The notes beneath the pieces were generated by a model, which saw only the letters and a list, made by a program, of their open reading frames with translations, made no database searches and was not told where the DNA came from. A program made the translations under genes and the position numbers. From a virus (lineage: Duplodnaviria; Heunggongvirae; Uroviricota; Caudoviricetes): 25,385 bases of DNA. This document shows positions 3,148 through 7,611 of this stretch, piece by piece; position 1 is the stretch's first letter, and each line of letters opens with the position of its first letter. The stretch lies in the IMG/VR virus record IMGVR_UViG_2657245081_000005; one strand, written 5' to 3'.

Positions 3148-3474
3148 TTATTTTTTTATAATGCGCTTACTTAATACAAACCATTGAATATACCCTCCTG
3201 ACAGAAAATAAAGCCATATTATTATCGCCATAATATACTTACTATCAATCCTTACGCCAATAATGTCTGATACAGTCCCTATAAATATTAGAGCAATAAA
3301 GAATACTATGCCTGTTGGAAAACATATTACCATCATTCCATAAGACATGAGACTAATTAACTCGCTCACATCACGAGTGGAGTCTAATAGTGAAAGTCTA
3401 TGCATGGAAAAGAATAGTATTAAAAGCGATAAAGCCAGCCATATAGCTCTGAATAAAAAAATAATATATTTCAT
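3148..3474 (-). CDS. Small membrane protein, putative cognate immunity protein of the upstream Rhs toxin (possibly ybfB-like)
   Basis: 108-aa [26 protein letters not shown]...MMVICFPTGIVFFIALIFIGTV...AIIIWLYFLSGGYIQWFVL, about three hydrophobic helices; start codon overlaps the toxin stop; AT-rich. Confidence 0.6.
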   Translation of the reverse strand: MKYIIFLFRAIWLALSLLILFFSMHRLSLLDSTRDVSELISLMSYGMMVICFPTGIVFFIALIFIGTVSDIIGVRIDSKYIMAIIIWLYFLSGGYIQWFVLSKRIIKK

Positions 3475-4602: not shown

Positions 4603-4957
4603 NNNNNNNNNNTCTCCAATAAGTAGCGGTTATTGCCACCACCAGAGCTGCAAATCTCATGGGTGATGGCCCGGACGGGGTTTGCAGTACCGGCCTTATT
4701 GGAAACCGGCCAGCCCGAAGGCTGCCCCGCCCGGACCACCATTATCTGACAGGAGCCACGGTGTAAGCACCACAGCCCGAAAAATAGGTGTGCCTGAGCA
4801 ACGACATAAAAAAACACGCTCGACGCGTGCTGTGTCGCCAATAAGTTACACGGGCTGCAAATCCCGGCTGCCGATTTTGCGGCAGCAGAAAAACTATAAC
4901 TGGAAAGCTTGCCAGGACGCAAGCCACAAAAAAAGAGATGAGACTGCAAAGCCAGAT

Positions 4958-6572: not shown

Positions 6573-6633
6573 NNNNNNNNNNCTAATTACGGTGGGTTCG
6601 GTGGAAGTAGTTTGTAGTATCCAGCGCAGTATC

Positions 6634-6709
6634 GGGTGATTAGCTCAGCTGGGAGAGCACCTCCCTTACAAGGAGGGGGTCGGCGGTTCGATCCCGTCAT
6701 CACCCACCA
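6634..6709 (+). tRNA. tRNA-Val (UAC), complete with CCA
   Basis: GGGTGATTAGCTCAGCTGGGAGAGCACCTCCCTTACAAGGAGGGGGTCGGCGGTTCGATCCCGTCATCACCCACCA; anticodon TAC. Confidence 0.9.
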
Positions 6710-6753
6710 CTCTCGCCAGCTAAATTTCTTGTAAAAATGTGAAGTACCGAAGT

Positions 6754-6808
6754 GGGTGATTAGCTCAGCTGGGAGAGCACCTCCCTTACAAGGAGGGGGT
6801 CGGCGGTT
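6754..6808 (+). tRNA. tRNA-Val (UAC), second tandem copy, 3'-truncated by N-run
   Basis: Identical 5' 55 nt to the copy at 6634; 44-bp spacer between copies. Confidence 0.85.
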
Positions 6809-6818
6809 NNNNNNNNNN

Positions 6819-7128
6819 ACCCGAAATGACGGTCAGATATTATATCAGCTCTGCTGATTTAACTGCAGAGAAGTTCGCCACAGCAATCCGAAACCACTGG
6901 CACGTGGAAAATAAGCTGCACTGGCGCCTGGACGTGGTAATGAATGAAGACGACTGCAGAATAAGAAGAGGAAATGCAGCGGAATTATTTTCAGGGATAC
7001 GGCACATTGCTATTAATATTTTGACGAATGATAAGGTATTCAAGGCAGGGTTAAGACGTAAGATGCGAAAAGCAGCCATGGACAGAAACTATCTGGCGTC
7101 AGTCCTTGCGGGGAGCGGGCTTTCGTAA
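6819..7128 (+). CDS. ISAs1-family (H-repeat-associated) transposase, C-terminal fragment
   Basis: ...[99 protein letters not shown]. Confidence 0.8.
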
Positions 7129-7173
7129 TCTTGCCTTGGATCAAATACTCCTTACATAATTAAGGAGAACAAA

Positions 7174-7601
7174 ATGGAACTTAAAAAATTGATGGAACAT
7201 ATTTCTGTTATCCCCGATTACAGACAAGCCTGGAATGTGGAACATAAATTATCGGATATTCTACTGTTGACTATTTGTGCCGTTATTTCTGGTGCAGAAG
7301 GTTGGGAAGATATAGAGGATTTTGGGGAAACACATCTCGATTTTTTGAAGCAATATGGTGATTTTGAAAATGGTATTCCTGTTCACGATACCATTGCCAG
7401 AGTTGTATCCTGTATCTGTCCTGCGAAATTTCATGAGAGCTTTATTAACTGGATGCTTGACTACCATTCTTCAGATGATAAAGACGTCATCGCAATTGAT
7501 GGAAAAATACACCGGCATTCTTATGACAAGAGTCGCCGTAAGGGAGCGATTCATGTCATTAGTGCGTTCTCAACAATGCACAGTCTGGTCATCGGACAGA
7601 T
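7174..7601 (+). CDS. ISAs1-family (H-repeat-associated) transposase, N-terminal fragment
   Basis: AAGGAG RBS then [62 protein letters not shown]...; starts 45 bp after the stop of the preceding tnp 3' fragment. Confidence 0.8.
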
Positions 7602-7611
7602 NNNNNNNNNN

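Follow-up and report, generated by a model that had tools for sequence, protein, structure and literature searches.

In a window of 25,385 bases (the whole stretch of DNA that was analysed), the block 6819–7601 carries the 3′ end of one ISAs1 transposase gene, followed 45 bp later by the 5′ start of another. A sequence-only reading took this tail-to-head order as a sign of either two abutting element copies (an IS dimer) or a circular excised IS. The question is what placed these two ends side by side. Comparison with finished genomes makes it very probable that the junction is a fixed relic beside yafV, in which a complete H-repeat (H-rpt, ISEc1) is joined to a resident copy that lacks its end, while the block itself is a leftover contig that switches to ybfD sequence.

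The window and its tail-to-head junction

The window consists of 50 blocks of 59–4757 bp (median 288 bp), and consecutive blocks are always separated by exactly 10 N. Among them, at least 16 pairs share 92–100% identity, many of them 92–98%, and most of these alignments start at block base 2. Besides such near-identical repeated blocks, the window contains tRNA fragments and IS pieces. This make-up points to leftover contigs of a short-read draft assembly, derived from repeats or variants and cut at variable bases, that were strung together. The largest block (13189–17945), with nhaA, nhaR and a fimbrial usher, matches E. coli ATCC 8739 and its relatives at 100% identity, so the source is a draft genome of E. 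coli from broadly this lineage. Neighbouring blocks in the window carry no information on the genomic context of 6819–7601.

Several other blocks show similar repeat features. Block 6583–6808 holds a complete tRNA-Val(UAC) (6634–6709) and then the first 57 nt of an identical second copy (6753–6808), which the N run truncates; this contig represents a tandem tRNA repeat in collapsed form. Three block pairs (5146–5503/9612–9969, 6293–6572/24706–25385 and 10249–10496/21652–21899) are 96–98% identical, and the same protein fragments are encoded by some of them. Some may be prophage paralogues, and presumably the pairs are allelic copies of paralogous repeats that were assembled as separate contigs.

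The junction block had been described as uninterrupted. Its 783 bp are indeed unbroken by N, with N10 runs only at its flanks (6809–6818 and 7602–7611), but it is a small repeat contig whose last ~185 nt come from another H-rpt copy. The first ORF (6826–7128, plus strand) encodes 100 aa, and its reading frame is open from the block start, with the 3′ end of the copy 1 transposase ORF covering 6819–7128 (102 codons and the stop TAA at 7126–7128). This piece matches positions 248–314 of the NCBIfam profile NF033564 (“ISAs1 family transposase”) with 99.8 bits (E = 1.6e-28), and the piece of copy 2, from the ATG at 7174 on, matches positions 1–114 with 141.1 bits. The cut-off of the profile is 70 bits, and a complete 378-aa H-rpt copy reaches 414 bits. 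Pfam places DDE_Tnp_1 (PF01609) on the C-terminal piece and DDE_Tnp_1_assoc (PF13808) on the N-terminal piece. The single DDE transposase matching the family model, by which ISAs1 elements are recognized, is thus found with both NF033564 and Pfam, and the proposed stop at 7128 and new start at 7174, separated by a 45-bp spacer (7129–7173), agree with the ORFs and with both profile sets.

Identity to known loci is equally clear. The copy 1 piece (6819–7128) is 100% identical to copy 1 of the yafV locus in ATCC 8739 and VG1046-3E9, and the 5′ part of the copy 2 ORF (7174–7416, plus strand; the part that gives the NF033564 match at 1–114) is identical to the truncated H-rpt adjoining yafV. Chance resemblance of the transposase pieces is ruled out by the 100% identity to annotated E. 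coli loci. A Shine-Dalgarno sequence (AAGGAG, 7162–7167) is located 6 nt upstream of the second ATG, and a palindrome with a 7-bp stem (CTCCTTA...TAAGGAG, 7148–7167) lies over it. The corresponding RNA hairpin (−9.3 kcal/mol, z = −1.29) is not significant against shuffles.

The termini of the element were defined from the sequences flanking nine H-repeat (ISEc1) copies in finished genomes and from an inverted-repeat search of the RhsC copy. A complete H-rpt measures 1291 nt (1290–1291 bp across the reference copies): the leader has 144 nt, the ORF 1137 nt, and 10 nt follow the stop. The termini of complete reference copies are CAGGGAAAGATCACGTAA (left inverted repeat, IRL) and TTTCGTAATCTTTCCCTG (right inverted repeat, IRR), with the stop codon inside IRR, and the repeat search on the RhsC copy returned the pair GGAAAGATCACGTAA / TTTCGTAATCTTTCC. 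An element of ~1.2–1.5 kb with short terminal inverted repeats, as in the ISAs1 family, is therefore present in the complete reference copies. The same search on ATCC 8739 copy 1 did not return its terminal repeats, owing to the degenerate right end in that copy (CTTGCCTTG). By eye, no direct repeat that would mark a target-site duplication was evident at the inspected copy flanks, and at copy 1 the right flank is another H-rpt, where a duplication would not be recognizable.

Similarity among the nine copies stops 10 nt past the stop codon, which puts the right terminus of copy 1 at 7138 (...ATCTTGCCTTG). Its right terminal inverted repeat, GGGCTTTCGTAATCTTGCCTTG (7117–7138, plus strand), contains the stop codon and is supported by the flank comparison, by the inverted-repeat search and by a second copy in the window. 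The sequence-only reading had placed the element end near 7130, on the ground that another copy of the same 3′ end continues differently after its stop. That estimate was close: the second copy is real (12245–12359, minus strand) and diverges exactly 10 nt after the stop, which gives 7138. The different sequence after its stop is explained by an RhsC-type tail-to-head junction in a small contig (12237–12360, minus strand), of the same form as the ybfL to ybfD junction in the RhsC array (L001). In this contig the right terminus ...TCTTTCCCTG extends to 12245, where position 25 of the adjoining copy takes over (CTTTTTGT, 12244–12237).

At the junction in block 6819–7601, base 7139 (GATCAAATAC...) corresponds to element position 110 of copy 2, and 7139–7173 (plus strand), when aligned with the RhsC tandem and with complete copies, proves to be the final 35 nt of the copy 2 leader (element positions 110–144). 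The 45-bp spacer is the sum of two parts, 10 nt of the copy 1 right end (to 7138) and 35 nt of copy 2 leader. It is not internal sequence of a single element, since complete copies have only the arrangement of 144-nt leader, 1137-nt ORF and 10 nt. The block has an inverted repeat of copy 1 only, its IRR; copy 2 is without the left inverted repeat (CAGGGAAAGATCAC...) and the rest of positions 1–109 (109 bp). Two copies do abut, as had been suggested, with the terminus at 7138 and copy 2 from 7139 on, but they do not form a dimer of complete elements, because 109 bp including IRL are missing and the right terminus meets position 110 instead of a left inverted repeat.

Two other H-rpt pieces were found in the window. 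One is an intact left end of another copy (10147–10238, plus strand; IRL CAGGGAAAGATCATC...), and the 36 nt before it (10111–10146, in block 10111–10238) have no match among the loci compared. The 3′ region of the ORF also occurs in another allelic form, the third, in a small contig at 12666–12753 (plus strand) that is 94% identical to 6868–6954.

The junction in finished genomes

A 171-bp query across the junction has a 100% match in a single piece in finished genomes, including ATCC 8739. The junction 53-mer (7113–7165), built so that junction-spanning sequence alone seeds a match, occurs in 115 of 5426 complete E. coli genomes (~2%), with one copy in each and on the chromosome every time. 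All eight carriers inspected (ATCC 8739, CUVM53, F9792, 100181, PI24, VG1046-3E9 and 214-4 among them) have the identical context, which is one locus beside yafV. The order there is an Rhs C-terminal tip with a small ORF, a full-length H-rpt, 45 bp, a 375-bp H-rpt pseudogene and yafV-ivy-fadE, and a 9-kb metagenome contig has the same arrangement. The site thus follows immediately after an Rhs C-terminal tip with its small ORF in the finished genomes that carry the junction, as in an Rhs-associated H-rpt array; this context is invisible in the window itself because block 6819–7601 is bounded by N runs. The RefSeq annotation of ATCC 8739 and others already includes both adjacent ISAs1 genes or pseudogenes. 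Judged by these genome comparisons, the junction is a fixed, vertically inherited chromosomal relic that is already known and annotated.

These results bear directly on three other explanations of the tail-to-head order. The first is a misjoin in which the assembler linked both ends of a single collapsed element; this would fit a window of leftover repeat contigs and a block whose distal part is mosaic. Such an artefact at the junction itself is highly improbable, as the 171 bp across it are found in one piece, with 100% identity, in finished genomes.

The second explanation, an excised circular intermediate with its right end joined to its left and caught by the assembler, would account for the order of the transposase 3′ and 5′ ends and for the short contig. 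Junctions of IS circles and (IS)2 dimers, as in IS911, IS30 and IS2 (copy-out-paste-in), hold both complete inverted repeats a few bp apart and are transient. The yafV junction shares with them the tail-to-head order of right and left IS parts and differs in both of these features, since its left repeat is missing and it is chromosomally fixed. A circle should bring together both complete termini, whereas IRL and 109 nt are absent here; the identical junction is chromosomal and single-copy in the 115 finished genomes, and at one fixed locus in all eight inspected; and where the window does contain an intact IRL, unrelated sequence flanks it and no right end adjoins it. The circular origin, one of the two possibilities first considered, can practically be dismissed.

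The third is an active (IS)2 dimer, that is, two complete tandem elements with reactive abutted ends. The two copies do abut, and a sigma-70-like site (TTGCCT, 18-nt spacer, CATAAT; 7131–7160) spans the junction. However, one such site was counted where shuffled sequences are expected to give 1.6, so that the junction promoter was rejected as evidence. Copy 2 has no IRL and is reduced to a 375-bp pseudogene in finished genomes, and transposition of H-rpt has not been observed (PMC3032704). We give an active dimer very little credence.

The fixed locus closely resembles what is known of the H-rpt/ISEc1 of E. coli Rhs elements (yafV, K-12 yafF “min 5”, RhsG-type), with 95–100% identity, the same locus and an association with Rhs; from the H-rpt/ISEc1 beside yafV there is no substantive difference. 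K-12 retains only a 3′ remnant of the resident H-rpt at yafV, in the form of yafF, while the lineage with the junction has a complete upstream copy and the 5′ part of the resident one. The ybfQ-ybfL-ybfD array at RhsC in K-12 is likewise tail-to-head, with an intact right terminus abutting a left-truncated next copy. There the next copy starts from position 25 and the distance from stop to ATG is 130 bp, whereas at yafV it starts from position 110 and the distance is 45 bp (85 bp less). The Hill laboratory reportedly described, in 1993 and 1995, the 1291-bp H-rpt, tandem defective copies at RhsC and an H-rpt near min 5. In our literature search on H-rpt, only a brief mention was found, in PMC3032704, and the paper on C-terminal displacement (PMC2935791) does not discuss H-rpt.

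The resident copy differs among strains. In the finished genomes with the junction, copy 2 is internally deleted, has 125 annotated codons and ends in a degenerate right end adjoining yafV. For example, in ATCC 8739 (L003, 7352–7500) ORF nucleotide ~375 meets the final ~20 nt of the element at a GAGCG microhomology, and the degenerate right end CGTAGTCTTCCCCG follows. UCPROB-001 (L017) shares this deletion and contains the internally deleted copy alone, with its IRL intact. EC96 has one complete H-rpt beside yafV, and 2014C-3338 (L018) has a complete copy between a 25-nt left-end fragment (~3370–3420) and a 30-nt right-end fragment (~4670–4720). These variants across strains indicate that copy 2 is an old resident element which decayed differently by lineage. 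Having no IRL and a truncated ORF, copy 2 is immobile.

The distal part of the block

The mosaic make-up of the block was analysed by ungapped comparison with the yafV locus and with ybfD copies. From 6819 to 7416 there are no mismatches to the yafV locus, including copy 2 of L003 and L010, and 69 mismatches appear from 7417 on, since the true yafV copy 2 differs from that point and then comes to an end. The opposite pattern was found with ybfD, which is the third H-rpt copy at RhsC and was taken from strains 184/2aE and VG1046-3E9: no mismatches in 7338–7601, and 4–5 discriminating mismatches to the left of 7338. With the last ybfD mismatch at 7337 and the first yafV copy 2 mismatch at 7417, the path switch is situated within a 79-nt stretch (7338–7416, plus strand) that is identical in both. 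The remaining ~185 nt (7417–7601, plus strand) are of ybfD type by this identity comparison, that is, of the third copy in the RhsC array; 7421–7601 is 100% identical to ybfD (L001, L009) and only 81% identical to yafV copy 2.

None of the 5426 finished genomes contains a full-length, collinear, single-piece match to block 6819–7601, and the best full-coverage hits are two-piece RhsC matches with 85 extra bp. The block starts at an inter-copy variant base (6819, A versus G) and stops a few nucleotides before the next inter-copy difference. Compared on this basis, its distal part is probably an assembly path switch within a collapsed repeat, made by graph simplification, and this is preferred to real gene conversion.

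The block could also be a real recombinant locus, in which copy 2 at yafV was converted by, or recombined with, ybfD in the source strain. The 79-nt identical stretch that holds the switch would be equally usable for homologous recombination, and mosaic H-rpt copies are common among strains. A strict unitig would break at 7337 and at 7417, so the assembler needed some ground, such as coverage or read threading, to join the block across these two discriminating sites. On the other side, the recombinant arrangement was found in none of the 5426 finished genomes, and a 783-bp orphan block edged by inter-copy variant sites is what a node of a repeat graph would look like. A similar splice of junction to ybfD is known from a metagenome contig, likewise without a counterpart in finished genomes. 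We regard the recombinant locus as the less likely account, although it deserves to be kept in mind.

That metagenome contig comes from a scan for the junction, which returned four contigs only. In three short-read metagenome contigs (L012, L013 and L014), the yafV-type junction is followed by canonical, non-deleted H-rpt sequence and not by the relic of yafV type. Two of them (L012 and L014) run on into the ybfD flank, and L013 into a full-length copy. L014 has the yafV-type junction spliced onto ybfD-ybgA-phrB, an arrangement absent from all 5426 finished genomes. The H-rpt repeat family readily yields chimeric contigs.

Origin of the junction and its meaning

In the relic, a complete 1291-bp H-repeat (ISEc1) lies upstream of yafV-ivy-fadE, with its right inverted repeat ending at window position 7138, and this right end directly adjoins position 110 of a resident H-repeat that is older. 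The resident copy has lost its left inverted repeat and, in the finished genomes, is internally deleted as well; the pair is passed on vertically. Two routes to the junction may be proposed. The first would depend on precise use of the copy 1 right end, whether copy 1 inserted into the leader of its neighbour, the upstream part being lost, or a deletion formed next to the IS. The second is an 85-bp deletion from an RhsC-like junction of right terminus and position 25, which would use a 2-nt microhomology (TG on both sides).

The yafV junction is not the only one of its kind. The right terminus of H-rpt is joined, to the nucleotide, to the interior of a sibling at three independent places, and the join points are position 110 at yafV, position 25 at RhsC and ~position 1262 in 2014C-3338. 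Separately, a breakpoint at 24/25 of the left end recurs, in the 25-nt fragment of 2014C-3338 and at the start of the third RhsC copy (L001, 4316/4317); it may stem from insertion next to or into sibling ends. The end-precise joins could be the footprint of an ISEc1 transposase that targets siblings or makes adjacent deletions, or H-rpt ends could help to deliver new Rhs toxin tips, but we consider either reading rather doubtful.

As a known and annotated H-repeat relic at an Rhs locus, the junction has small biological weight. It gives a caution for draft genomes, in that small repeat contigs in N-joined drafts can splice different IS copies across identical stretches, and IS contigs in tail-to-head order need comparison with finished genomes before they are read as dimers or circles. 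For the H-repeat family, the end-precise junctions at several loci offer a modest lead on whether ISEc1 was ever active.
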